Shown: positions 3,514 to 34,455 of the stretch, piece by piece | How positions within the stretch are numbered: the stretch's first letter is position 1 | Layout: each line of letters starts with the position of its first letter | From: Candidatus Uhrbacteria bacterium | GTDB taxonomy: Bacteria > Patescibacteriota > Patescibacteriia > JACPHY01 | Direction: 5' to 3' | DNA: 42,116 nucleotides | Assembly: GCA_043813445.1 (NCBI GenBank) | Contig: JBDRLD010000063.1 | Coordinates: 1 to 42,116, forward strand | Position numbers and translations under genes: made by a program | Notes under the pieces: generated by a model | What the model saw: the letters and a program-made list of their open reading frames with translations, nothing else | Database searches by the model: none | What the model was told of the DNA's origin: nothing

Positions 3514-4326
3514 ATGGCACAACGAAAACGGGTCGGATTAGCACTGAGTGTCGGCGGGCCGCGCGGCGTTGCGCATGTGGGCGCTATTCAGGTGCTGCGC
3601 GAACATGGCATCCCCATCGACTATGTCGCCGGTGCAAGCATCGGCGCGTGGGTTGGTGCGTGCTACGCGCGGAGCGAGGATGTCGATGAACTCGCAGCGA
3701 AGACGCTCGGCTACAAGCGCGAGAAGGTGCGCGCGATTTTCGAGCCGTCGTTGCGCGGCGGCCTGGTGAAGGGGATACGCGTGGAGCGACTGCTTCGCGA
3801 ACTCCTCGATGACGTGACGTTTGAGCAATTACGAATCCCGCTCACAGTTGTTACAACAGACCTCGTGAGTGGTGCCGAGGTCGACATAACGACCGGAGAT
3901 GTTGTACGCGCGGTGCGTGCGAGCATGGCGATCCCATTCATCTTCCGCGCGGTCGAGGATGGCGATCGTCGGCTCGTGGATGGCGGGCTCATCAATCCGC
4001 TTCCGGTTGACATTGTGCGGCGCATGGGTGCTGATATCGTTATCGCTGTGAATCTTGAGGGATCATCACTCTTGAGTGCAGTAACGCATTCGCGATTGAA
4101 TTCGTCCGTGCGTATTGCAAAGCGTTCTTTCGAGATCATGAGCAACAAGATTGCTGCCCAACAGGCAGTGCGAGCAGACATTGTTATCGAGCCAAAGTTC
4201 TCACAGACCGCGCTCGAGTACTGGAAGGCGTATTTCTTCCGTGATGGAGAGCGAGAGCTCTTAGAGGCCGGACGTGCCGCTGCAACGGAGCAGCTCGATG
4301 CGATTCACGCCGCACTCGACTCATAG
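3514..4326 (+). CDS. patatin-like phospholipase
   Basis: GGPRG oxyanion motif, GASIG (GxSxG) nucleophile and DGG motif. ATG 3514 has GGAG 8 nt upstream. Alternative starts are 3493 (ATG) and 3454 (TTG). Confidence 0.85.
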   Translation: MAQRKRVGLALSVGGPRGVAHVGAIQVLREHGIPIDYVAGASIGAWVGACYARSEDVDELAAKTLGYKREKVRAIFEPSLRGGLVKGIRVERLLRELLDDVTFEQLRIPLTVVTTDLVSGAEVDITTGDVVRAVRASMAIPFIFRAVEDGDRRLVDGGLINPLPVDIVRRMGADIVIAVNLEGSSLLSAVTHSRLNSSVRIAKRSFEIMSNKIAAQQAVRADIVIEPKFSQTALEYWKAYFFRDGERELLEAGRAAATEQLDAIHAALDS

Positions 4327-4513
4327 GTCGGCATCACATCGAAGGCGCCGCACCATGCGGTGCCTTTTCGTGTAACAAATCCGGCTGCATGACGTATATG
4401 TTTCATGAAAGGTCGGATAGTATTGCGGCGCCAATTACCGTGCTACGCTGTATGCGAGAATACTGGAAATACTATGGGGATCGCGAGGCGCACCTCGCAA
4501 CCCGTTCACGGTC

Positions 4514-5074
4514 ATGGATGCAGCTCCGCACGACATTAATGCCGCGTTTCATAGTGGCGAGCCACAGGCGGTGGGGGCGGCGTACGATGCGTACGTCAGC
4601 TCGGTGTATGCGTTCATCTACTATCGGACGCACCACCGAGAAACCGCAGAGGACCTCACCGGTGATGTGTTCCGGAAGGCGGTTGAGCACGCGCGATCGT
4701 ACGATCCCGCGAAAGCATCGCTAAAGACCTGGCTACTTCGCATTGCACGAAATACCGTTATCGATCATGTTCGTGCGCATCGATCCGTCGTATCCATTGA
4801 CGATGTCCAGACCATACCGAGCGGTATCGATGTCGAGCGCGTCGCGGAGGCACGTCGGACATTGGAAGAGGTGCGGAAGCATCTCGACGCGCTGCCGGAG
4901 CGGCAGCGGGAGGTCGTGATGATGCGGGTATGGGACGGACTGTCGTATGCGGAGATTGCGACGATTCTTGGGAAGCGCGAGGGTGCCTGCAAGACCACAT
5001 TCTGCCGTGCGATGAAGCAGCTTCGTATACTTGTGCCGCTGCCAGCGTTCATCGCATTGCTACTTGCGAGCTAA
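4514..5074 (+). CDS. ECF-type RNA polymerase sigma-70 family factor
   Basis: Region 2 (AEDLTGDVFRKA, WLLRIARNTVIDHVRA) and region 4 HTH (LSYAEIATILGKREGACKTTFCRAMKQL). Confidence 0.85.
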   Translation: MDAAPHDINAAFHSGEPQAVGAAYDAYVSSVYAFIYYRTHHRETAEDLTGDVFRKAVEHARSYDPAKASLKTWLLRIARNTVIDHVRAHRSVVSIDDVQTIPSGIDVERVAEARRTLEEVRKHLDALPERQREVVMMRVWDGLSYAEIATILGKREGACKTTFCRAMKQLRILVPLPAFIALLLAS

Positions 5075-8162: not shown

Positions 8163-8906
8163 CTAGGTTCGATTCTGCGTTTTCTTAAGCTCCTCGACCG
8201 TTAGCGTATCGCTGATTATATACTGTCCCACGCGGGTGCGTTCTAGTGCAGATAGGTAGCCGCCGACGCCGAGCTGCTCACCAATATCACGTGCGAGCGA
8301 GCGGATGTAGGTGCCGGGTCCGCAGACGACGCGGAGTATGAGTTGAGAGTTGAGAGTGGATAGTTGATAGTTGAGGAGCTCAATCTCCTTAATTTCGACC
8401 TCGCGCGGCTCCATCTGTATGTCCTCACCCTTCCGCATGCGGCGGTGTGCCGGCTTGCCTTTGATTTTGATTGCGCTGTACTTTGGAGGGACTTGTTGGA
8501 TGTGGCCGATGAATTGTTGGAGTATAGGTAGTACTTCTTGGAGCGTTGGAGGTAACCACCCCCCCTCGCCCCCCCACCGAGAAGGATTGGGGGAATCTAT
8601 TTTTTTCTCCCCCACCCACCGGGAGGGGGAGTTAGAGGGGGTGGGGGTGACGGTTCCCTCCGCATCATCCGTGTCAGAGGTTGCACCGAGTGTGATGGTG
8701 GCGATGTACTCCTTTTCCTTTGCGACAATACCCGCGAGCTGTTTGGTTGCGTCGCGGCCAATACCAATAACAAGCACGCCGCTTGCCATGGGATCGAGTG
8801 TTCCCGCATGACCAACACGCCGCTCGCCGGTGATGCGGCGCACGGCGTTGACGATATCGTGCGAGGTCGGCCCCTTCGGTTTGTTGATGGCAACGATGTT
8901 GTCCAT
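8163..8906 (-). CDS. truB: tRNA pseudouridine(55) synthase TruB
   Basis: KPKGPTSHDIV and catalytic GHAGTLDPMASGVL motifs, plus C-terminal GTYIRSLARD. Contains two repeat-derived in-frame insertions. Confidence 0.9.
   Translation of the reverse strand: MDNIVAINKPKGPTSHDIVNAVRRITGERRVGHAGTLDPMASGVLVIGIGRDATKQLAGIVAKEKEYIATITLGATSDTDDAEGTVTPTPSNSPSRWVGEKKIDSPNPSRWGGEGGWLPPTLQEVLPILQQFIGHIQQVPPKYSAIKIKGKPAHRRMRKGEDIQMEPREVEIKEIELLNYQLSTLNSQLILRVVCGPGTYIRSLARDIGEQLGVGGYLSALERTRVGQYIISDTLTVEELKKTQNRT
8341..8376. repeat. heptamer array AGTTGAG/AGTTGAT (5 units) inside truB
   Basis: AGTTGAG AGTTGAG AGTGGAT AGTTGAT AGTTGAG. The same family occurs at 17183-17216, 32486-32510 and 33696-33726. Confidence 0.8.
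8555..8648. repeat. GC-rich palindromic element (two inverted units) inside truB
   Basis: ACCCCCCCTCGCCCCCCC...GGGGGAA, a short T-rich spacer, then CTCCCCCACCCACCGGGAGGGGGAGTTAGAGGGGGT. Related units occur at 29821-29882, 33348-33467 and 34157-34195. Confidence 0.75.
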
Positions 8907-11745: not shown

Positions 11746-11908
11746 ACGAGGAACCGAGGTATCAAGCGTACTCGCGCAGATACTGAGCGGGGACACCAAG
11801 CTCGCATTCACCCATCCCCTTCGACTCCACTCCGTTTCGCTCAGGGAGTAACGGTGTACGAGGAACCGAGGTATCAAGCGTACTCGCGCAGATACTGAGC
11901 GGGGACAC
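11746..11908. repeat. 51-nt direct repeat pair (11746-11796 and 11858-11908)
   Basis: ACGAGGAACCGAGGTATCAAGCGTACTCGCGCAGATACTGAGCGGGGACAC occurs twice, identical, 112 nt apart, in the tRNA-Ile/tRNA-Phe spacer. Confidence 0.85.
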
Positions 11909-11932
11909 AAAGTCTATCTCATTCACTGCAGG

Positions 11933-12009
11933 TGGTGGGCGCACCAAGATTCGAACTTGGGACCTCTGCCTTATCAGGGCAGCGCTCTAACCAACTGAGC
12001 TATGCGCCC
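11933..12009 (-). tRNA. tRNA-Ile (anticodon GAT), CCA encoded
   Basis: Acceptor GGGCGCA/TGCGCCC, anticodon arm CTGCC-CTGATAA-GGCAG, T arm CCAAG-TTCGAAT-CTTGG. Confidence 0.9.
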
Positions 12010-12070
12010 GTCATCTGGAGTGGATGGATTGTGAACGAACAAGCCTACAGCATCGCTGTAGCTCAGGGAG

Positions 12071-12099
12071 AGCATAACACGGGTGGGTGAGCTGCGCAA
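12071..12099 (-). promoter_or_regulatory. promoter TTGCGC-N17-TATGCT for the tRNA-Ile/tRNA-Phe unit
   Basis: Minus-strand hexamers at 12094-12099 and 12071-12076 with a 17-nt spacer. Confidence 0.45.
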
Positions 12100-12100
12100 G

Positions 12101-12139
12101 AACACCAAACGCCCCGGCAGAGCCAGGGCGTTTGGTGTT
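12101..12139 (-). terminator. hairpin terminator after CDS 12154..13074
   Basis: AACACCAAACGCCC...GGGCGTTTGGTGTT long stem immediately downstream of the stop. Confidence 0.55.
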
Positions 12140-12153
12140 GTGGCCTGTGGTGA

Positions 12154-13074
12154 TTACTCGGTAGATCGAATGGAGAGTTGCGGGTCTTGATCGATGAGGC
12201 GCTCGGCAGTACGCCGTGCGAAATCGGGCGGGAGTGTTTCCTTGCGGTGCTGCCAGATTTCTCTCATGAGGTCCGTAGCGATGCGATTCACAACTCCCCC
12301 AAGTTCTGGGTGTTGCAACTTCCACACACCCTTGGCGTCGAGGACGCCGAGTTCGGTACATCGCTGTGCGAAGGCTTTTTCGTTTTTGGTGCGTACGTAG
12401 AGCTCCTGCTGAATGAATGTTGGAGCATAGTACCCAGGCTCGCTTGGAGTATCGTGCGATTTGGTTACATCGTCTAGGAGGACTTCCGTTGCGTGCTCTG
12501 GATGAATATACGCATTTGCCGCGCGAACGGCCTTGCGCTCCAGCGCTACGCGTTCTTCACGCAATACTTGCTCCGGCTTTCCGGCACGCTCCTGTTCGTA
12601 CGCGAGGATTGCTTCCTTCATCTCCTCCGCGAGGTAGTCCTTCAATTCTTCATCATGCACGTCGATATTCAACACGTGACGATGTGGATTCGACTCCGGA
12701 TCCCAACGACGCCCCTCTTTAACGACTTGCGCATCCTCTAGCATGCTCACAGTGTTGTCGTCGCCCTCATTGTTTGCGCGATCGGCCGCGCGCTGCAGGA
12801 GCGCGACAGTTGCGCGTTCCGTAGCTTCGTGCACGTGTTTCAATTGAAGGTCGCCCAGATCGAGTGATTCGACGTCGAGTGCATTTGCCTGAGTCAGGTC
12901 TCCAAGCGCTCCCTCAAGTGAGATCCGGTCTCGCTTCCAGCGGCGCTCAGAAATGATGTGCGCCGCTTCCCCCTGTGTGCCAGCTTGTTGTTCGATTTCG
13001 TCTGGCGGTAGTGAATCTTCCGGTCCGGATTCCTTCCACCACTGTGATTCTGTGACTGCCATAGATTGCTCCAT
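12154..13074 (-). CDS. hypothetical acidic protein
   Basis: 306-aa ORF with its own promoter and terminator, lying between the 16S rRNA gene and tRNA-Ile. No family recognised. Confidence 0.6.
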   Translation of the reverse strand: MEQSMAVTESQWWKESGPEDSLPPDEIEQQAGTQGEAAHIISERRWKRDRISLEGALGDLTQANALDVESLDLGDLQLKHVHEATERATVALLQRAADRANNEGDDNTVSMLEDAQVVKEGRRWDPESNPHRHVLNIDVHDEELKDYLAEEMKEAILAYEQERAGKPEQVLREERVALERKAVRAANAYIHPEHATEVLLDDVTKSHDTPSEPGYYAPTFIQQELYVRTKNEKAFAQRCTELGVLDAKGVWKLQHPELGGVVNRIATDLMREIWQHRKETLPPDFARRTAERLIDQDPQLSIRSTE

Positions 13075-13096
13075 TTTGATGACGACACTTAGTTTG

Positions 13097-13125
13097 AGTA
13101 TAGATATTCATGGGATCATACGCAA
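13097..13125 (-). promoter_or_regulatory. promoter TTGCGT-N17-TATACT
   Basis: Minus-strand hexamers at 13120-13125 and 13097-13102, upstream of the ATG at 13074. Confidence 0.45.
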
Positions 13126-13131
13126 ACGCAA

Positions 13132-13161
13132 CAGCCCACCCTTCGTATGAAGGGTGGGCTG
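13132..13161 (-). terminator. hairpin terminator downstream of the 16S rRNA
   Basis: 13-bp stem CAGCCCACCCTTC / GAAGGGTGGGCTG with loop GTAT. Confidence 0.55.
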
Positions 13162-13188
13162 GTTGCTTGCAGAAAAAGGTACAACAAC

Positions 13189-13217
13189 CGTTATCTATCT
13201 GAAGAGTGGTAGGTAAG
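13189..13217 (-). other. 16S trailer half of the rRNA processing stem
   Basis: CGTTATCTATCTGAAGAGTGGTAGGTAAG is complementary to leader 14906-14929 (CTTACCACTCTTCAGTTGATAACG). Confidence 0.6.
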
Positions 13218-13306
13218 CCCGACTTCGGCATCCCCGAAGGGTACCGATCGACCTGGAGTGTCTTTACTTCAATCATTTCTGATCTCAGCGCAGAATGAAC
13301 TCCTAG

Positions 13307-14791
<1,485 letters not shown>

Positions 14792-17052: not shown

Positions 17053-17760
17053 TCAAGAGCGTCGGATTTTGCGCCACGCATCGATTTTTTTGTGATCGCC
17101 TTCCAGTAGTATCTTCGGCACGCGCCAATGCACACCGCGCTTAGGTGAAAAATCGGCTGGTCTCGTGTAGGCGGGTACACCGAGTTGATATTTGATATTT
17201 GATAGTTGAGAATGAAGCTCTCCAAAGCTTTCGTCCTCCAGCGATTCCGGATCGCCAAGCACGCCCGGAATCAAGCGGGTCACCGCATCGACGATGGTCA
17301 GTGCGGGAAGCTCGCCGCCGGTGAGGACGTATGGGCCAACACACACCTCCTCATCCGCGAGATGCTTCGCAACGCGTTCATCTACGCCTTCGTACCGGCC
17401 ACAGATGAGCACGAGTCGATTGTACTTCTTCGCGTACCGTTCCGCGTCGCGCTGCGTGAAGGGCTTGCCTTTGGCACTCATCAGCAGCACGCGAGTGCGG
17501 CGACGCGGGACGCTGGATGCTGGACGCTGGACGCAACGTAGCGCGCGCAAGGCACGATAGATCGGTTCCACCATCATCACCATACCCGCTCCACCACCGA
17601 ACGGCTTGTCGTCCACATTTCGGTGTTTCCCGGGGGCCCACTTACGAAGATCGTGCACGTCAAATCGAGCGAGTCGCTTTGTCTGTGCGCGCTTTAGCAT
17701 CGCCGCATTAACATACGGCGTAACGACCTCTGGGAAAATGGTGATGATATCTATTTTCAT
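17053..17760 (-). CDS. trmD: tRNA (guanine37-N1)-methyltransferase TrmD
   Basis: Motifs IITIFPE, VDDKPFGGGAGMVM, ICGRYEGVDERV, YVLTGGELPA and YTRP. Confidence 0.9.
   Translation of the reverse strand: MKIDIITIFPEVVTPYVNAAMLKRAQTKRLARFDVHDLRKWAPGKHRNVDDKPFGGGAGMVMMVEPIYRALRALRCVQRPASSVPRRRTRVLLMSAKGKPFTQRDAERYAKKYNRLVLICGRYEGVDERVAKHLADEEVCVGPYVLTGGELPALTIVDAVTRLIPGVLGDPESLEDESFGELHSQLSNIKYQLGVPAYTRPADFSPKRGVHWRVPKILLEGDHKKIDAWRKIRRS
17183..17216. repeat. heptamer array (AGTTGAT family) inside trmD
   Basis: AGTTGAT ATTTGAT ATTTGAT AGTTGAG AATGAAG, translated HSQLSNIKYQL. Confidence 0.75.
17508..17534. repeat. heptamer array GGACGCT (4 units) inside trmD
   Basis: GGACGCT GGATGCT GGACGCT GGACGC. 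The same array occurs at 22450-22469 in smc. Confidence 0.8.
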
Positions 17761-21331: not shown

Positions 21332-21394
21332 GGAGAGGAATAGACGCGAAGAGGCCCCCATGGTGGGGGCCTCTTAATGTCGACATACTCGTCC

Positions 21395-21892
21395 TTAGTC
21401 GTCCTCTTCGGGCGGCGGCGGGATGTCGTCGCAGTTCTCGCCGTTGGAGCGGCATCCGTCGTCGCGACGCTCGCCACGGTCCTCCTCGTCCCAGAGGCCG
21501 CCGGTGCCGGTGAAGGCGTTGGCGGCGCGGCACCGCATGCGATCCTGCGCGGTCTTCGCGGCTTTGAGGCAATCCTCGGCGGCGTTCCGCTGTTCGGCTT
21601 GCTTCGCGTCCTCGCGCGAGGCCCGCGCGTCGTCGATGTCGTCGCAGTTCTCGCCGTTGCTGCGGCAGCCATCGTCGCGACGCTCGCCACGGTCCTCCTC
21701 GTCCCAGAGACCACCGGTGCCGGTGAAGGCGTTGGCGGAGTGGCACACCATCTTTTCGTACTCATCCTGCGCCAGCGCGAGGCAGCGCTGGAGCGGGTTA
21801 CGAGGCAGCGCCTCGTCGTCGGCGTTGATGTGTTGCTGGGTCGCGGCGCAACCGCCCAGCATCAGAATCATCGCGCAATGGATCACTCTCAC
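21395..21892 (-). CDS. putative lipoprotein with internally duplicated Cys-rich acidic module
   Basis: The GTG start has AAGGGAG upstream. The signal MRVIHCAMILMLGGC ends in a lipobox-like LGGC. The 34-aa module ANAFTGTGGLWDEEDRGERRDDGCRSNGENCDDI is present twice. Confidence 0.6.
   Translation of the reverse strand: MRVIHCAMILMLGGCAATQQHINADDEALPRNPLQRCLALAQDEYEKMVCHSANAFTGTGGLWDEEDRGERRDDGCRSNGENCDDIDDARASREDAKQAEQRNAAEDCLKAAKTAQDRMRCRAANAFTGTGGLWDEEDRGERRDDGCRSNGENCDDIPPPPEEDD
21422..21736. repeat. intragenic 102-nt duplication (21422-21523 and 21635-21736)
   Basis: The two copies differ at 6 of 102 nt, and all differences are synonymous. Confidence 0.85.
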
Positions 21893-21964
21893 GGTGTTCT
21901 CCCTTTCTTTCTTGGGGCCTTGCAGCCCACTCCTCGTCAGACATCTCGCCAGACGGGACTATTC

Positions 21965-21993
21965 ACAATATCACAAAACACCCCATTTGTCAA
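21965..21993 (-). promoter_or_regulatory. promoter TTGACA-N17-TATTGT
   Basis: Minus-strand hexamers at 21988-21993 and 21965-21970. The -35 box sits in the loop of the smc terminator hairpin. Confidence 0.55.
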
Positions 21994-22003
21994 GGGGTGT
22001 TTT
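21975..22003. terminator. hairpin terminator after smc
   Basis: AAAACACCCC-ATTTGTCAA-GGGGTGTTTT. Confidence 0.55.
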
Positions 22004-22089
22004 GTTTGGTTATGTGGCTATTCTTTCCACTTCCTTCAGTTTTGTGCTGAGGAGCTTTAACCACGTCATTCGATGGGGTGCGTACGCCT

Positions 22090-24306
22090 TCACCGTGTAA
22101 CTTGAGCGGCCTCTTCCAATTTCATGGAAAGTAATTTGCTTGCGCCATCGCCTGCCATCGTCACACCGTAGATGGCTGCAGCGCGCTCCATGGAGTAGCG
22201 GTTGTGTGTGACCACGAGGAATTGTGTCTGTTTCGCGAGGTCCTTCAGAATTTCTGCGAAGCGCACCGAGTTTGATTCATCGAGTGCCGCGTCTACCTCA
22301 TCGAGTACGACAAATGGCGACGTGCTTGCAGAGATGATTGCGCAGAGAAGTGCGATGGCGGTAAGCGCACGCTCGCCACCGGAGAGCATGGAGATCGATT
22401 TGATGCGTTTGCCGGGCGGCGTCGCTTGGATGTCGATGCCGGCAACGCCGGACGCTGGACGCTGGACGCCGGGCGCCCGGTCTTCAGGAGGAATATCATG
22501 GATGGTCCCTCCTTCGTTAACATCATCCTCCTGCAGTTTTTCTTCTATTTTGAGGAGGGTGAGCTTTGCGGATCCGCCGCCAAAGAGTTGGCGGAAATAT
22601 CGCTCAAAGTGTTCATTGATTTTCGTGAATGATGTGTGGAATGCACGATCGATTTCCTCCTCGAGTTCGGCGATGATGCGGTTCAGAGAATGGAGAGACG
22701 AGCGGAGGTCAACCGTTTGTTGTTCGAGGAAGGAAACTCGTTCTTTTGTTTCCTCATACTCGCGCACCGTTTCCTCGTCGAGCGTTCCGATCGCTGCCAG
22801 GTCGCGCTGAAGACGCATAATGCGATGCGATGCACCTTCCGGGGCTGCGGTGTCGGGCCGCGAGAGCGACTCCGGTTCACGGGCATCTTCGAAGTCTCGA
22901 AGAATCTCCGCGCGCAGATCTTCGCGGCGTTGCTCCGAGCGAGCGAGCTCGATGCGGAGATCGTTCGCATGCTGTGCTGTGCGGTTCAGCGTGAGCTGCT
23001 CGTCGCGGTATCGGCGTTGCAGGTCGAAAAGCGCACCCTTCTTTTTTCGTTCGTCCGCGTGGTAATCGGCCATCCGTCGCTGTACATCTCGAAGCTTATC
23101 CTCGATTGCTTTCAGTGCGTTCTCGGTATCGTGGAGTTCTTTCGGTGGTGCGTCGTCTTGTTCCGGTGCGGTGCGTAGGCGTATCGCGGCTATGCGTTCG
23201 TGAAGACCGCGTAGACGAGTGAGGGTCGGCTGAAGGTCGTCGAGCGACGTGATGAGACGGAGCGTTTCGAGGAAGGCATCGAAATCCGTGAGCAGTGTAT
23301 CGAGATCGGCGGTAAGTGCAGATGCGGGTAGCTCCTCGTGCTTCTCCGTGCGTTGCCGGATGTCATGCTTCATGGCAAGTACATGCTCGCGCAGCGACTG
23401 GCGTCGATCGACAAGTGTCTCGTACTCGTGCTGGAGCTTCATGAAAATATCGTCCTTCCGTTCCTCGATTTCGATCGTGTTGAGTTGCGCTTGAATGCCA
23501 TCGACAGCTTGCTGGAGACGCTTGCGTTCCGCGTCGGCTTCAGCACATGCGCGCTGCCCCTTCGAAAGCTTATCGCCAAGAGTGTGCCAACGCGCACCAT
23601 GGTACTGCTCGAGGAGTGTGGTTAGCTCGCGCTCCAGTTCTTCTCGTTGCTCGAGCCGTCGAACTTGTCGTGTGAGCGAGCGAAGTCGCGGGGTCAGTTC
23701 CTGGAGAAGTGTCTCACCCTGACGGAGATTCTCCTCGGCGCGCGAGAGTTTTCTAATCGCACCATCGCGTTTCAGCTCGGCAGGACGAATACCTGCCGCC
23801 TCATCGAAGAACGACTTTCGTGCCATGGGAGAAGCGAGGAGAAACTCATCGACCATTCCCTGACCGATGATCGAGTATGTGCGTTGACCGATACGCGATT
23901 CTGCGAGGAGGAGCTGGATGTCTTCGCGTCGCACCCTGGTGCCGTTGAGGAGATATTCGGATTCCCCGGAGCGATAGACGCGTCGGCCAATGACCACCTC
24001 GGTGAAGTCAATGGGTGCAGAATGATCTTCGTTGTTGAGGGTGAGTGTGACTTCGGCGATGCCAAGGCGAGGTCGTTTCGGTGTGCCTGCGAAGATGACG
24101 TCTTCCGCTTTCTTCCCGCGGAGGAGTTTCATGGATTGCTCGCCGAGTACCCAACGAACGGAGTCAACGACACAGGATTTACCTGAGCCGTTCGGGCCGA
24201 CGATCGCGGTGATGCCGCGTGAGTCACTTGTCGGTGGAAGGAATTCGAGCGTTACCGCGTTTGCGAACGACTTGAATCCGTTGATTTCGATTTTTTGTAA
24301 CCACAT
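22090..24306 (-). CDS. smc: SMC-family chromosome segregation ATPase, unusually short (738 aa)
   Basis: N-terminal head (FKSF, GPNGSGKS Walker A, VIFAGT) and C-terminal head (LSGGERALTAIALL signature, VLDEVDAALD Walker B, VVTHN). Only about 365 aa of coiled coil lie between them. Confidence 0.85.
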   Translation of the reverse strand: MWLQKIEINGFKSFANAVTLEFLPPTSDSRGITAIVGPNGSGKSCVVDSVRWVLGEQSMKLLRGKKAEDVIFAGTPKRPRLGIAEVTLTLNNEDHSAPIDFTEVVIGRRVYRSGESEYLLNGTRVRREDIQLLLAESRIGQRTYSIIGQGMVDEFLLASPMARKSFFDEAAGIRPAELKRDGAIRKLSRAEENLRQGETLLQELTPRLRSLTRQVRRLEQREELERELTTLLEQYHGARWHTLGDKLSKGQRACAEADAERKRLQQAVDGIQAQLNTIEIEERKDDIFMKLQHEYETLVDRRQSLREHVLAMKHDIRQRTEKHEELPASALTADLDTLLTDFDAFLETLRLITSLDDLQPTLTRLRGLHERIAAIRLRTAPEQDDAPPKELHDTENALKAIEDKLRDVQRRMADYHADERKKKGALFDLQRRYRDEQLTLNRTAQHANDLRIELARSEQRREDLRAEILRDFEDAREPESLSRPDTAAPEGASHRIMRLQRDLAAIGTLDEETVREYEETKERVSFLEQQTVDLRSSLHSLNRIIAELEEEIDRAFHTSFTKINEHFERYFRQLFGGGSAKLTLLKIEEKLQEDDVNEGGTIHDIPPEDRAPGVQRPASGVAGIDIQATPPGKRIKSISMLSGGERALTAIALLCAIISASTSPFVVLDEVDAALDESNSVRFAEILKDLAKQTQFLVVTHNRYSMERAAAIYGVTMAGDGASKLLSMKLEEAAQVTR
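22450..22469. repeat. heptamer array GGACGCT (3 units) inside smc
   Basis: GGACGCT GGACGCT GGACGC, translated VQRPAS as in trmD. Confidence 0.8.
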
Positions 24307-24312
24307 AGTGGC

Positions 24313-24402
24313 GACTACGGTCTAGAGTCTACGGACTACAGCAAGTCAAATTCCGACTACAGAAATTTCCCGACTGTAGTCGGTGGTCCGTAGACCGTAG
24401 TC
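24313..24402. repeat. inverted arrays of GACTACG-type heptamers (long imperfect palindrome)
   Basis: Left arm GACTACG GTCTAGA GTCTACG GACTACAG. Right arm GACTGTA GTCGGTG GTCCGTA GACCGTA GTC. Inner 9-bp hairpin CGACTACAG/CTGTAGTCG. Confidence 0.75.
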
Positions 24403-29739: not shown

Positions 29740-29909
29740 GTCATTGCGAGTAAGGCGAAGCCGAGCGCGGCAATCCCGTTGTAAGTGAACCGGATCGCCA
29801 CCCGCCACAAGCTTCGCACGCCACCCCCTCGTACTCCCCCTCCCGCACTGCGGCGGACTCGGAAGCTAGAAGAGGGGGAGGCCAGCGCGAGGATGCGACT
29901 CGCGATGAC
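29740..29909. mobile_element. MITE-like 170-bp element with 12-bp terminal inverted repeats
   Basis: The TIRs are GTCATTGCGAGT (29740-29751) and ACTCGCGATGAC (29898-29909), matching at 11 of 12 positions. The core 29821-29882 carries the GC-rich unit ACCCCCTCGTACTCCCCC...GGGGGAG, also found inside truB, tsaD and tsaE. Confidence 0.4.
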
Positions 29910-29988
29910 ATAAGACATGGCATGAGATGATCTCCAACCCTTGAACGTAGGGGCGGGGCATAGTCCCCGCCCGCGAAGGAGAAGAACG

Positions 29989-32050: not shown

Positions 32051-32095
32051 CAATAGCAAAAGCTCCCCATGCGAGATGGGGAGCTTTTGCTATTG
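32051..32095. terminator. perfect 20-bp-stem palindrome abutting the tRNA-Glu 3' end
   Basis: CAATAGCAAAAGCTCCCCAT-GCGAG-ATGGGGAGCTTTTGCTATTG. Confidence 0.5.
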
Positions 32096-32165
32096 ACCCC
32101 ACCGGGAATCGAACCCGGATTTCAAGGATGAAAACCTTGCGTCCTGACCACTAGACGATGGGGCC
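32094..32165 (-). tRNA. tRNA-Glu (anticodon TTC)
   Basis: Acceptor GGCCCCA/TGGGGTC (one G-U pair), D arm TCGTCTAGTGGTCAGGAC, anticodon arm CAAGG-TTTTCAT-CCTTG, T arm CCGGG-TTCGATT-CCCGG. Confidence 0.85.
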
Positions 32166-32475
32166 GGAGTACGTACCCTCCTTTAAAGCCTTTCGAAGCA
32201 TTCCAGAGTTTTTAATAAGACGTTCTCGTTGCAGCGCTTCCTTTTTTGTGTCGTGTTCTTCCTGGTAGATGAGCGTATATGGGCGATGTGGTTTTGTCGA
32301 TTGAACTTTTCCTGCATTGTGTTCTCGAAGACGACGGGCGACATCATTTGTTTCCCCGATGTAAAGTGTTTTATTGGAGACGCTCTGTAGTACGTACACG
32401 AAATTCAACATAGGTGCGTCTCAGGCGTAGCCTGACCCGGCTACGCCGGGCTGACCACTAGACGATGGGGCCGGA
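32144..32475 (-). mobile_element. GIY-YIG gene cassette flanked by a 25-bp direct repeat of the tRNA-Glu 5' end
   Basis: CTGACCACTAGACGATGGGGCCGGA occurs at 32144-32168 and 32451-32475 (identical). It corresponds to tRNA positions -3 to +22. GC content between the repeats is lower than in the flanks. Confidence 0.5.
32151..32411 (-). CDS. GIY-YIG nuclease family protein
   Basis: 86 aa. FVYVLQS...LYIGETNDVARRLREHN is the GIY-YIG core, and a conserved E occurs in ALQRERLIK. The last 5 codons and the TAG stop lie inside tRNA-Glu. Confidence 0.8.
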   Translation of the reverse strand: MLNFVYVLQSVSNKTLYIGETNDVARRLREHNAGKVQSTKPHRPYTLIYQEEHDTKKEALQRERLIKNSGMLRKALKEGTYSGPIV

Positions 32476-32560
32476 AGAGTTGACAAGTTGAGAATGGATA
32501 GTTGATAGTTGCAGGACAGGCACAGGAACAGCAAACCACATACAATACACTACGTCAATC

Positions 32561-33841
32561 ATGGTAGCATGGTCGTACATGGGAGAGAAACAGACCATTC
32601 GCGTTCTCGGAATTGAGTCGTCATGCGATGAAACCGCGGCGGCCATTGTTCATGTTGCACGAACAAGGGATCGCGGGCGTTGGCGGTATGCGTTTGACGT
32701 GCGGTCGAATGTTGTTGCATCGCAGGTGAAGACGCACGCGAAGTACGGAGGCGTCGTTCCGGAAATCGCGGCACGCGCACATGTGGAGGCCATTATTCCG
32801 GTCATCGATGAGGCGGTTGGGCTACGGAAGTTCGACGCGGTTGCGGTGACGTCCGGGCCTGGTCTCGTCACATCGCTTGCGGTGGGCGTGGAGACTGCAC
32901 GGACCATCGCGTTCGCGCGTCAGCTCCCGGTCATCGGGGTGAATCATATTGAGGGTCATATCCTCTCTGCCCTACTCAAGCCAGGCAGAGAGGAACAAGG
33001 AACAGGAAATAGAAGACAAGAAACTCAGCACGTTCCCATGTCCCATGTCTCTTATCCCATGTTCCCTACAGTTTGTCTCGTCGTCTCAGGCGGTCATACC
33101 GAGCTGCTGCTGATGCGGGGATGGGGGAAGTACGAGCTGATTGGCGCGACACGGGATGATGCGGTTGGTGAAGCGTTCGATAAGGTGGCAAAGCTGCTCG
33201 GCCTCGGGTATCCGGGCGGGCCAATCGTATCGCAGCGTGCGGCGCAGGGCGATGCAGCGGCGTTTGATCTTCCGCGACCGATGATGGATTCGGATGACTT
33301 TGATTTTTCGTTCTCTGGGTTGAAGACTGCGGTGCGTTACATGATTTCTCCACCTCCTGCGAGGAGGGGGAGAGTAAGAGGGGGTCGTGCGCGAGCAGTC
33401 ATCTCTGAGCGTAATCGAATCGTCAACAATACCACCCCCTCTCACTCCCCCTGCGGGGCAAGGGGAGAACCGTCCGAGGCGGAAGGGGGGGAACAAGTTG
33501 GGACGCCCAAACGCCGGAAAGAGGTCTCCGATATCTGCGCGAGCTTCCAGCAAGCGGCTGTCGATGTGCTCGTGGCGAAGACGGTGCGCGCGGCGCGGGA
33601 GTTTGGCGCGAAGGCCGTGCTGCTTGGTGGGGGCGTGGCGGCGAATACGCAACTCCGTCATCAACTCGGCAATGCGCTGCAGCAAGAGATACCAGCTATC
33701 ACCTATCACCTATCAACTATCAATTACTGCGGTGATAACGCGGCCATGATCGCCGCGGCAGGTGGTGTGCGGCTCCTCTCGGGACAGCAGACGCCATGGA
33801 AACGACTTGATGTAAATCCGAATTGGGAGTTAGGGAGGTAA
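32561..33841 (+). CDS. tsaD: tRNA N6-adenosine threonylcarbamoyltransferase TsaD
   Basis: Motifs VLGIESSCDETAAA, YGGVVPEIAARAH, NHIEGH, VSGGHTEL, FSFSGLKT and GDNAAMIA. An alternative start lies at 32579. Three repeat-derived insertions are present. Confidence 0.9.
   Translation: MVAWSYMGEKQTIRVLGIESSCDETAAAIVHVARTRDRGRWRYAFDVRSNVVASQVKTHAKYGGVVPEIAARAHVEAIIPVIDEAVGLRKFDAVAVTSGPGLVTSLAVGVETARTIAFARQLPVIGVNHIEGHILSALLKPGREEQGTGNRRQETQHVPMSHVSYPMFPTVCLVVSGGHTELLLMRGWGKYELIGATRDDAVGEAFDKVAKLLGLGYPGGPIVSQRAAQGDAAAFDLPRPMMDSDDFDFSFSGLKTAVRYMISPPPARRGRVRGGRARAVISERNRIVNNTTPSHSPCGARGEPSEAEGGEQVGTPKRRKEVSDICASFQQAAVDVLVAKTVRAAREFGAKAVLLGGGVAANTQLRHQLGNALQQEIPAITYHLSTINYCGDNAAMIAAAGGVRLLSGQQTPWKRLDVNPNWELGR
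32982..33067. repeat. inverted heptamer arrays (GGAACAN / ATGTCCC) inside tsaD
   Basis: AGAGGAA CAAGGAA CAGGAAA TAGAAGA CAAGAAA ... CGTTCCC ATGTCCC ATGTCTC TTATCCC ATGTTCC. Confidence 0.75.
33348..33467. repeat. two inverted GC-rich units inside tsaD
   Basis: CTCCACCTCCTGCGAGGAGGGGGAGAGTAAGAGGGGGT (33348-33385) and its approximate reverse complement ACCCCCTCTCACTCCCCCTGCGGGGCAAGGGGAG (33434-33467). Confidence 0.75.
33696..33726. repeat. heptamer array (AGTTGAT family, reverse orientation) inside tsaD
   Basis: GCTATCA CCTATCA CCTATCA ACTATCA ATT is the reverse complement of the AGTTGAT/AGGTGAT units. Confidence 0.75.
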
Positions 33842-33903: not shown

Positions 33904-34455
33904 ATGAAAGAGAAATACACGAGCCACAGCGAAGAGGAGACTATGCGGATCGCGGCAACGCTTGCGGCCGAGCTTCATGGTGGCGAGGTGGTGCTGCTCG
34001 AGGGGGAGCTTGGTGCGGGGAAGTCTGTGTTTGTTCGTGGGCTCGCGCACGCGCTCGGTGTCACGCACCGCATGCCAAGCCCCACCTTTGTGCTTATGCG
34101 CGTGTACGGAATGAAACAGACGGAGAATAGAGAACAGAGAACAAAGAATCGGATCCCCACCCCCTCTCACTCCCCCTCCCGGCGGGAGGAGGAGAAAAGA
34201 AAGTGTTCCATGTCCACCAGCCATTCCTTCGCTCAGTCGCTTCGTTATTTCATCCACGTCGACGCGTACCGTGTGAACGACGCGCAGGAGCTTGATGCAA
34301 TCGGCCTACGCGAGTGGCTTGGCCGTGAAGATGCGATTGTCGCCATCGAGTGGGGCGAGCGTGTAGCACCGACATTACGCGACATACGTATTATCCAAGT
34401 CCTCCTGTCCATTGGACGCACGGCGGAAATGCGGAGCATTCACATCGTGCGGTAA
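33904..34455 (+). CDS. tsaE: tRNA threonylcarbamoyladenosine biosynthesis ATPase TsaE
   Basis: P-loop LEGELGAGKSVFVRG, SPTFVL and HVDAYR motifs. Carries an insertion of about 40 aa made of repeat DNA. Confidence 0.85.
   Translation: MKEKYTSHSEEETMRIAATLAAELHGGEVVLLEGELGAGKSVFVRGLAHALGVTHRMPSPTFVLMRVYGMKQTENREQRTKNRIPTPSHSPSRREEEKRKCSMSTSHSFAQSLRYFIHVDAYRVNDAQELDAIGLREWLGREDAIVAIEWGERVAPTLRDIRIIQVLLSIGRTAEMRSIHIVR
34117..34230. repeat. composite repeat element inside tsaE (heptamer arms flanking a GC-rich unit)
   Basis: CAGACGG AGAATAG AGAACAG AGAACAA AGAATCG, then ACCCCCTCTCACTCCCCCTCCCGGCGGGAGGAGGAG, then GTGTTCC ATGTCCA CCAGCCA. Confidence 0.75.

Follow-up and report, generated by a model that had tools for sequence, protein, structure and literature searches.

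Two segments of the truB gene in the 42,116-base stretch of DNA analysed here, which is a complete contig and is referred to below as the window, appear to be what remains of small DNA repeats which entered this gene and were kept as they are in frame, free of stop codons and situated in permissive places, a reading to which we assign a probability of roughly 75%. At the first of these (site 1) an inverted pair of a GC-rich hairpin unit is present, while the second (site 2) consists of an array of heptanucleotides. An earlier reading of the same DNA, referred to here as the original prediction, held that repeat elements had been inserted and survived where the reading frame was maintained, and this interpretation is supported by the repetition of the elements, their lineage specificity, the integrity of the frame and their location in loops.

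Among the other genes of the window are five for tRNAs and one for 16S rRNA. Its host is, to judge from TruB, a member of the Candidate Phyla Radiation (CPR) without a close sequenced relative, as the proteins most similar to the window TruB are named Candidatus Uhrbacteria or Parcubacteria and are 50-62% identical by BLASTP, or at most 69% in a multiple alignment. An exact-protein look-up of the window TruB returned no match. The TruB open reading frame (ORF) is uninterrupted, as had been predicted, and the coordinates and translations originally assigned to the repeats all proved correct on re-examination. The repeats do lie in housekeeping genes; to call these essential was loose wording, since truB is dispensable in E. 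coli.

Two classes of repeats in the window

The hairpin unit, of the C5/G5 type and about 40 nt long, comprises two parts, a 5' box (CCACCCCCTCyaAC, also written CCACCCCCTC-y-a-AC) and a stem-loop, TCCCCCT(CCCG)-loop-(CGGG)AGGGGGAG, which is followed by a purine-rich tail; the stems are TCCCCCTCCCGG/GGGTGGGGGAG. The unit is arranged as an inverted pair in both truB and tsaD. The two inverted GC-rich units predicted at 8555-8648 in truB were located at 8556-8646 (Table 1), where unit 1 matches the tsaE copy at 89% over 47 nt and matches the family pattern exactly at 8624-8644, and where unit 2 (8556-8597) is degenerate (77% over 26 nt). Together they form a 99-nt imperfect palindrome whose termini are the 5' box and its reverse complement, and the predicted fold of 8552-8650 has an energy of -60 kcal/mol. 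The related units foreseen in tsaD, in tsaE and in intergenic DNA at 29821-29882 were also recovered, the last of these nested in a longer palindrome (29741-29912) over which the sole ORF has no Pfam match and in which there is no credible gene. With up to 3 mismatches allowed, CCACCCCCTCNNACTCCCCCT has 5 matches in the window (truB, tsaD twice, tsaE and the non-coding copy at 29821) as compared to 0.00 expected. The peptide stretches predicted from the ORFs for these inserts include IDSPNPSR and GTVTPTPSNSPSR. A structured-RNA search placed no Rfam family at its gathering threshold, and permissive E-values gave only sub-threshold generic hairpin matches, mainly to microRNA precursor families; a known structured RNA was rejected as the identity of the unit. 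Neither intron nor intein signatures were seen in the Pfam and Rfam searches.

The heptanucleotide arrays, judged by their many different unit sequences, are a class distinct from the hairpin units. Nine period-7 arrays are present in the window, whereas 100 dinucleotide shuffles had 0.78 on average and at most 4, and seven of the nine are in frame within genes, namely truB, trmD (two), an SMC-like gene, tsaD (two) and tsaE. The 16-nt family pattern GATAGTTGATAGTTGA, again with up to 3 mismatches, has 12 matches in the window versus 0.24 expected. The array of 7-nt units predicted at 8341-8376, with the translation NYQLSTLNSQL, was placed by Tandem Repeats Finder (TRF) at 8340-8375 with 5.1 copies; it is identical at 25/26 positions (96%) to the non-coding array at 32486, with which it has an irregular unit in common. 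Members of this AGTTGAT-type family are indeed found in trmD, in tsaD and in intergenic DNA, and GACGCTG arrays with 92% similarity, read in the same frame, are shared by trmD and the SMC-like gene. All arrays listed in the original prediction stand, although its census overlooked those in trmD (17502-17534), the SMC-like gene (22445-22477), tsaD (33034-33062) and tsaE (34123-34148). The motifs recur in unrelated genes and in non-coding DNA, as it had claimed, and strong over-representation is evident for all three counts (arrays, heptamer pattern and hairpin pattern) within the 42-kb window over which they were made.

Two observations concern the surroundings of heptamer arrays. Between the SMC-like gene and a DHH-family gene, two inverted arrays of the GACTACG/GTCTACG type (24313-24402) form a predicted hairpin of -45 kcal/mol. 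Elsewhere, an 86-aa GIY-YIG nuclease ORF (32151-32411, minus strand; Pfam 1e-17) is located between tRNA-Glu(ttc) at 32094-32165 and a perfect 25-nt copy of the 5' end of that tRNA (32144-32168 = 32451-32475); by its sequence this segment resembles a cassette, some 307 bp long, that was inserted in the tRNA-Glu gene with restoration of the 5' end, and a heptamer array begins 11 nt beyond it.

The repeats as probable insertions in TruB and other proteins

The truB segments are absent from solved TruB structures, and in alignments of the window proteins with solved TruB, TsaD, TsaE and TrmD structures the gaps fall exactly at the repeats (Table 1). Among the 120 nearest relatives of the window TruB, the segment delimited by the invariant residues G84 and F132 (G84..F132), which spans site 1, has a modal length of 22 residues (67/120) as compared to 47 in the window protein, and the segment Y180..G196, which spans site 2, has a mode of 11 (108/120) as compared to 15; a segment at least 6 residues longer than the mode was observed in 20/120 relatives at site 1 and in 10/120 at site 2. 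In keeping with the original prediction, the segments are therefore not conserved in distant TruB orthologues, as most of the 120 relatives and the solved structures are without them, and by alignment the GC-rich pair in truB is clearly a lineage-specific insertion.

An AlphaFold model of the window TruB, built with a 29-sequence alignment, has a mean predicted local distance difference test score (pLDDT) of 90, exceeding 90 in the core, and superposes on the E. coli and T. maritima TruB with template modelling (TM) scores of 0.79-0.81 (0.81 to 1K8W). Residues 91-120, which lie within the hairpin-pair insert, are modelled as coil with block-mean pLDDT values of 48-67, residues 93-100 being below 50, while the heptamer-encoded residues make up the tip of a confident beta-hairpin at 168-195 (strands 168-181 and 187-195). 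The original prediction had expected the inserts in surface loops, and for site 1 the model agrees with this in terms of coil and low confidence. The hairpin pair is thus predicted to lengthen a disordered surface loop by approximately 25 residues.

The same two sites were examined at the DNA level in four orthologue loci (P0004, P0005, P0009 and P0010). At site 1 the same hairpin family, read in the same frame (TPSxSPSxRE), is found in P0005, P0009 and P0010; P0005 and P0010 have it at site 2 as well, in another frame (PPTPPLQEGEG), while P0004 harbours a GTCATTGCGAG-type palindrome (SLRGAESDEAIP) and a third palindrome at sites 1 and 2, respectively. P0009 and P0010 are sister proteins with 74% identity, yet P0010 possesses a complete extra 42-nt hairpin nested in the site-1 unit that P0009 also carries, and it has a site-2 unit where P0009 lacks both the unit and the near-invariant YxWP residues, which in sequence looks like an imprecise deletion. 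Insert-bearing TruB proteins are not monophyletic in a (weak) neighbour-joining tree, and sisters carry different families or none. As insert-bearers are scattered in the tree and sisters differ in the family that they carry, these comparisons argue that inserts have repeatedly been gained, replaced and lost at two permissive TruB loops, and on the same weak tree a single ancestral insertion at site 1 was rejected as the sole explanation.

The palindrome family GTCATTGCGAG...CTCGCGATGAC, the non-coding member of which lies at 29741-29912 in the window, is also the in-frame site-1 insert (SLRGAxxDEAIP) of the TruB orthologues P0004, P0011 and P0014. Even in TruB orthologues of modal length, site 1 is occupied by 12-residue linkers of repeat-like sequence (ESVRQESVRQ, SVNQESVNQ, EISDSKIQISD, SPITNHQLPITKQ), and these resemble peptides coded by heptamer arrays in other CPR genes; it may be that the apparently uninserted state of site 1 is itself derived from repeats.

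Table 1. Position, strand and description of the truB gene, of the repeats in the window and of the corresponding protein insertions
Feature	Position	Strand	Description
truB coding sequence	8163-8906	minus	Uninterrupted ORF, 247 aa; Pfam TruB_N (2e-43) split into two stretches, and TruB_C_2; PDB TruB matches
truB site 1, hairpin pair	8556-8646		Two inverted copies, 91 nt; translated TPSNSPSRWVGEKKIDSPNPSRWGGEGGW, 29 residues
truB hairpin unit 1	8600-8646	minus	Coding strand CCCCACCCCCTCTAACTCCCCCTCCCGGTGGGTGGGGGAGAAAAAAA; translated PTPSNSPSRWVGEKK
truB hairpin unit 2	8556-8597	plus	Inverted relative to unit 1; minus-strand reading DSPNPSRWGGEGGW
truB site 2, heptamer array	8340-8375	minus	GAGTTGA x5.1, period 7 (TRF); translated (L)NYQLSTLNSQL
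trmD heptamer array 1	17185-17209	minus	AGTTGAT family; translated SQLSNIKYQL; trmD = 17053-17760
trmD heptamer array 2	17502-17534	minus	GACGCTG family; translated CVQRPASSVP
SMC-like gene, heptamer array	22445-22477	minus	GACGCTG family; translated GVQRPASGV; gene = 22090-24306
Non-coding long palindrome	29741-29912	plus	GTCATTGCGAG...CTCGCGATGAC, -74 kcal/mol; C5/G5 unit 29821-29882 nested inside
Non-coding heptamer array	32486-32511	plus	AGTTGAT family
tsaD heptamer array 1	33034-33062	plus	TCCCATG; translated VPMSHVSYPMF; tsaD = 32561-33841
tsaD hairpin pair	33348-33470	plus	Inverted units 33348-33387 (reverse) and 33432-33470 (forward), with spacer between
tsaD heptamer array 2	33696-33722	plus	AGTTGAT family in reverse orientation, on the opposite strand; translated AITYHLSTIN
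tsaE repeats	34123-34201	plus	GAGAACA heptamer array 34123-34148, then directly hairpin unit 34155-34201 (PTPSHSPSRREEEKR); tsaE = 33904-34455
truB insertion	between residues 88 and 121		About 25 extra residues versus solved TruB; hairpin pair
tsaD insertion 1	aa 142-158		About 17 extra residues versus solved TsaD; heptamer array at downstream edge
tsaD insertion 2	aa 259-322		About 50 extra residues versus solved TsaD; two hairpin units and spacer are part of the insertion
tsaE insertion	residues 70-112		About 42 extra residues versus solved structures; heptamer array and hairpin unit
trmD insertions	at each of two arrays		+9 aa each versus solved TrmD; heptamer arrays

Several other features of the window were noted. 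Within the window no 23S gene follows the 16S rRNA gene (13307-14790, minus strand), and a 306-aa ORF without a Pfam match (12154-13074) is located between the 16S gene and tRNA-Ile (region 11933-14790). A direct repeat of 55 nt with 98% identity (11746-11800 and 11858-11912) is located between tRNA-Phe and tRNA-Ile, and another of 117 nt, with 91% identity between copies 213 nt apart (21422-21538 and 21635-21751), is present within the Pfam-less ORF 21377-22060.

Distribution across phyla and known repeat systems

A scan with a 21-nt hairpin pattern, in which each species was represented by one genome, returned at least 115 loci, and nearly all of the listed loci display the full box-plus-hairpin architecture with variable loops. 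Among the matches listed, the CPR is represented by metagenome-assembled genomes (MAGs) labelled Uhr-, Andersen-, Buchanan-, Peri-, Berkel-, Lipton-, Falkow- and Saccharibacteria, and the Cyanobacteria by Cyanothece sp. BG0011 and a Leptolyngbyaceae MAG, each of which has many copies; the list further includes Planctomycetes (Aquisphaera insulae), Alcanivorax, Bacteroidota, Chloroflexi and other groups. The unit is present in the isolate genomes of Cyanothece sp. BG0011, Aquisphaera insulae and Alcanivorax hongdengensis. One MAG labelled Gammaproteobacteria (CAZPCZ01; L006 / L116) has a Uhrbacteria-like truB locus which is syntenic with other CPR contigs; its label is probably wrong on this sequence evidence, and similar Gammaproteobacteria labels of binchicken MAGs in the pattern scan were treated as unreliable.

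Copies were scored as deep in an ORF where the ORF has at least 150 aa with at least 30 aa on each side of the copy, and among the matches listed this applied to 15/24 hairpin copies in the CPR as compared to 0/33 in cyanobacteria (Fisher p = 6e-8). Ten of the CPR host ORFs were confirmed, namely ValRS, DnaG, LigA, a GatA-type amidase, UvrC, a P-type ATPase, KsgA, PGI, PGM and a class II aaRS. Both orientations are represented among the 15 deep CPR copies, which fall in at least four frame classes, with a fifth seen in the peptides, which are unrelated to one another, and the CPR copies outside long ORFs are situated in intergenic gaps and do not split genes. Across 258 kb of CPR loci, tandem repeats most often have a period of 7, with 53 arrays or 20.5 per 100 kb, which equals the density in the window (21 per 100 kb) and compares with 25.9 per 100 kb in Cyanothece; array length in the CPR loci peaks at 31 nt (13/52). 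Twenty-four of 52 CPR arrays lie deep in long ORFs versus 1/31 in Cyanothece. Heptamer units recur within one genome and differ between loci (for example AATTTCT in L015, and TTTCGGA in L081 and L113). Heptamer arrays surround the hairpin unit in Cyanothece, just as an array adjoins the unit in tsaE, and it is observed that the two classes are associated, though their origins may differ.

By analogy, the closest functional counterpart of the inserts would be the Rickettsia palindromic elements (RPEs), to which they had originally been likened. According to a review (PMC10969869, citing Ogata et al. 2000, 2002), RPEs are palindromes of a reduced genome that are found both in its non-coding DNA and, in frame, within housekeeping genes unrelated to one another; the review describes the encoded peptide as tolerated outside the core of the fold and the elements as selfish DNA filtered by selection. 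The analogy is apt, as the window units are in frame in truB, tsaD and tsaE, are also present in the non-coding segment 29821-29882 and, in TruB, occupy a region compatible with the fold in the model described above, and as the ten housekeeping genes of other CPR genomes extend this pattern. Classic RPE-1-type elements are, however, some 100-150 bp long and confined to Rickettsia, whereas the CPR unit is about 40 nt (91 nt as a pair), seems unrelated in sequence, is found in many phyla, is accompanied by heptamer arrays and is only one of several families that repeatedly hit the same protein loops. On the grounds of size and host the units therefore fall outside the RPEs, a placement made on these two properties, families 1-10 not having been compared by sequence.

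In size the units correspond to repetitive extragenic palindromic (REP) sequences rather than to RPEs, being about 40 nt long and arranged as inverted pairs. REPs and their paired forms (REPINs) are GC-rich hairpins of 20-40 bp, often in inverted pairs and mostly intergenic (PMC3733652; Bertels and Rainey 2011, PMC3116915), and Di Nocera et al. 2013 (PMC3733652) described GTAG/CGTC-tagged REPs that in some species are in frame, often in replication and repair genes, with dimers encoding 20-30 residues. The palindrome length, the inverted pairs in truB and tsaD and the 29 residues encoded by the truB pair are all REP-like, and so is a frequent location in genes of replication and repair. The CPR unit differs in having no GTAG/CGTC tag (its flanks, in the window as in 119 other copies, are CTAAC/CTCAC/CCAAC and, on the opposite side, GAGAA), in having an extra conserved 5' box, and in being mostly intragenic in the CPR among the matches listed, where the cyanobacterial copies are predominantly extragenic. 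No gene for a REP-associated tyrosine transposase (RAYT) was seen among the approximately 40 long ORFs of the window, whole genomes not having been searched.

For the arrays, the nearest analogue would be the short tandemly repeated repetitive (STRR) heptamers and the small dispersed repeats of cyanobacteria. STRR sequences are 7-nt tandem arrays which occur in excess throughout a genome and whose units are specific to it. The CPR arrays resemble these in consisting of tandem 7-nt units at many loci, far in excess of chance, in their density and in their contact with the hairpin unit as seen in Cyanothece and tsaE. They differ in host, in that about half of the CPR arrays and units are inside genes whereas those of Cyanothece are nearly all outside, and in the units found in the window (AGTTGAT, GACGCTG, TCCCATG and GAGAACA). 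[quoted passage not shown] In a full-text search of the literature we found no description of in-frame palindromic, MITE or REP elements in the CPR, and as a text string the motif matched only primers.

Origin and meaning of the repeats

In the scenario that we favour, an inverted pair of the hairpin element, a member of a family dispersed over many bacterial phyla, would have entered a loop of truB at site 1, while a heptanucleotide array would have rebuilt the tip of a beta-hairpin at site 2. In gene-dense CPR genomes such an element would land in housekeeping genes, and selection would spare only in-frame, stop-free insertions in loops, the survivors being translated as filler peptide, as the integrity of the ORFs suggests; the same two TruB loops would have been repeatedly hit, replaced and partly deleted in related lineages. 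That the copies left in the CPR are largely intragenic would be due to the little intergenic space available and to selection against other copies. The dispersal of the elements points to mobile or templated spread and, by analogy with REPs, our guess would be that a single-stranded hairpin is mobilised in trans by an enzyme. The broader proposition, that a cross-phylum hairpin family of about 40 nt and heptamer arrays are actively turning over in essential genes throughout the CPR/Patescibacteria, moved by some machinery and forced into protein loops by scarce intergenic space, is advanced tentatively, as the odds are somewhat against it.

A number of observations weigh against our interpretation of the truB segments. 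Pfam scans revealed no transposase, RAYT or IS200-type gene among the approximately 40 long ORFs of the window, and no transposase among the 25 most often matched Pfam families in 150 ORFs around CPR copies; neither a target-site duplication nor a within-species empty-site polymorphism was found, none of the former being evident on comparison of filled and unfilled TruB sites. Translation is argued from the integrity of the ORFs, and copy number and coding bias were derived from 42 kb plus loci picked for containing a copy. The heptamer arrays, moreover, are not clean insertions, as the net change is only +4 residues at truB site 2 and +2 at the tsaD 33696 array, and the arrays therefore partly overlie ancestral codons; site 2 is built of repeats, as originally predicted, although not by a clean 36-nt insertion, its gain over the modal orthologue being about 4 residues. 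Lastly, the sequences of heptamer units vary widely between loci, which fits local generation as well as it does transposition. In the 117 ORFs around the Cyanothece copies, Pfam likewise showed no enriched transposase; two IS605 tnpB genes were found, one of them near a unit. This IS605-family tnpB (3633-4871, minus strand; L016:3498-4871, Cyanothece sp. BG0011) ends approximately 95 nt away from a hairpin unit next to which lies a heptamer array, and this single case is a possible lead to a mobilising system.

The variation among units, in the window and at other CPR loci, and the small net changes also suit the proposal that heptamer arrays, including that of truB at 8340-8375, were made in place by replication slippage or another form of local multiplication of a 7-nt unit, to some 4-5 copies, and that similar arrays are convergent, as do the repeat-like 12-residue linkers of uninserted TruB orthologues. 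Convergence sits poorly, however, with the near identity of the truB and 32486 arrays including their irregular unit, with the likeness of the two GACGCTG arrays, with the recurrence of the same units at several loci of one genome, with the sharp peak in array length at 31 nt, which simple slippage does not predict, and with arrays that directly flank a hairpin unit in Cyanothece and tsaE. We regard this proposal as possible but doubtful as a full account of the arrays, which may in part have been generated in situ; it covers the arrays only and is compatible with insertion of the hairpin units. That the elements are instead retained as useful, either as structures in DNA or mRNA with effects on transcription, on the stability of mRNA or on the speed of translation, or as flexible linkers that the proteins have recruited, could explain why hairpin architecture is strongly conserved across phyla, why the predicted folds are very stable (for example that of the truB pair) and why the same two TruB loops are used repeatedly. 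Such a role is nevertheless unlikely, as most TruB orthologues work without inserts, sister lineages have unrelated element families at the same site, the copies in either orientation and in several frames encode unrelated peptides, no Rfam family reaches threshold and the encoded segment is modelled as disordered.

It is still less probable that the segments are absent from the mature protein, being cut from the mRNA or skipped by the ribosome. Strong GC-rich hairpins are a trait that the repeats have in common with known bypassing and intervening elements, such as the GC-rich 'byp' elements of some yeast mitochondria, and this resemblance is the sole argument for removal, to which the results of the analysis added none; all coding copies, in the window and in the 15 CPR genes, preserve the frame and lack stop codons, which an excised or bypassed element would not need to do, while the copies outside long ORFs do not split genes and intron and intein signatures are lacking in the searches made. 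Least credible of all is an assembly artefact, or ordinary ancestral protein sequence that looks repetitive by chance. The contig was assembled from a metagenome and short repeats can mislead assemblers, but the frame is kept in five separate genes, assemblies made independently from other samples have the same family at the same TruB sites, the three isolates named above carry the hairpin unit, and the lack of the segments in most TruB orthologues is at odds with an ancestral origin.

Translated in-frame selfish repeats are textbook-famous in Rickettsia, and REPs of this kind were subsequently recorded in a few other species; the insertion of hairpin and heptamer repeats in truB and its counterparts would add the CPR, a large and little-understood section of the bacterial tree, with the new features of a hairpin family shared with cyanobacteria and planctomycetes, a link to heptamer arrays and the re-use of the same protein loops. 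It would account for odd insertions in CPR housekeeping proteins, caution against reading these as functional or phylogenetic characters, and provide a natural map of insertion-tolerant loops, and it poses the question of what moves 40-nt hairpins in genomes seemingly without the usual transposases. If turnover of these elements is indeed CPR-wide, a measurable share of the variation in CPR protein length, and of the recurrent 'insertion hot spots', would represent selfish DNA and not adaptation.

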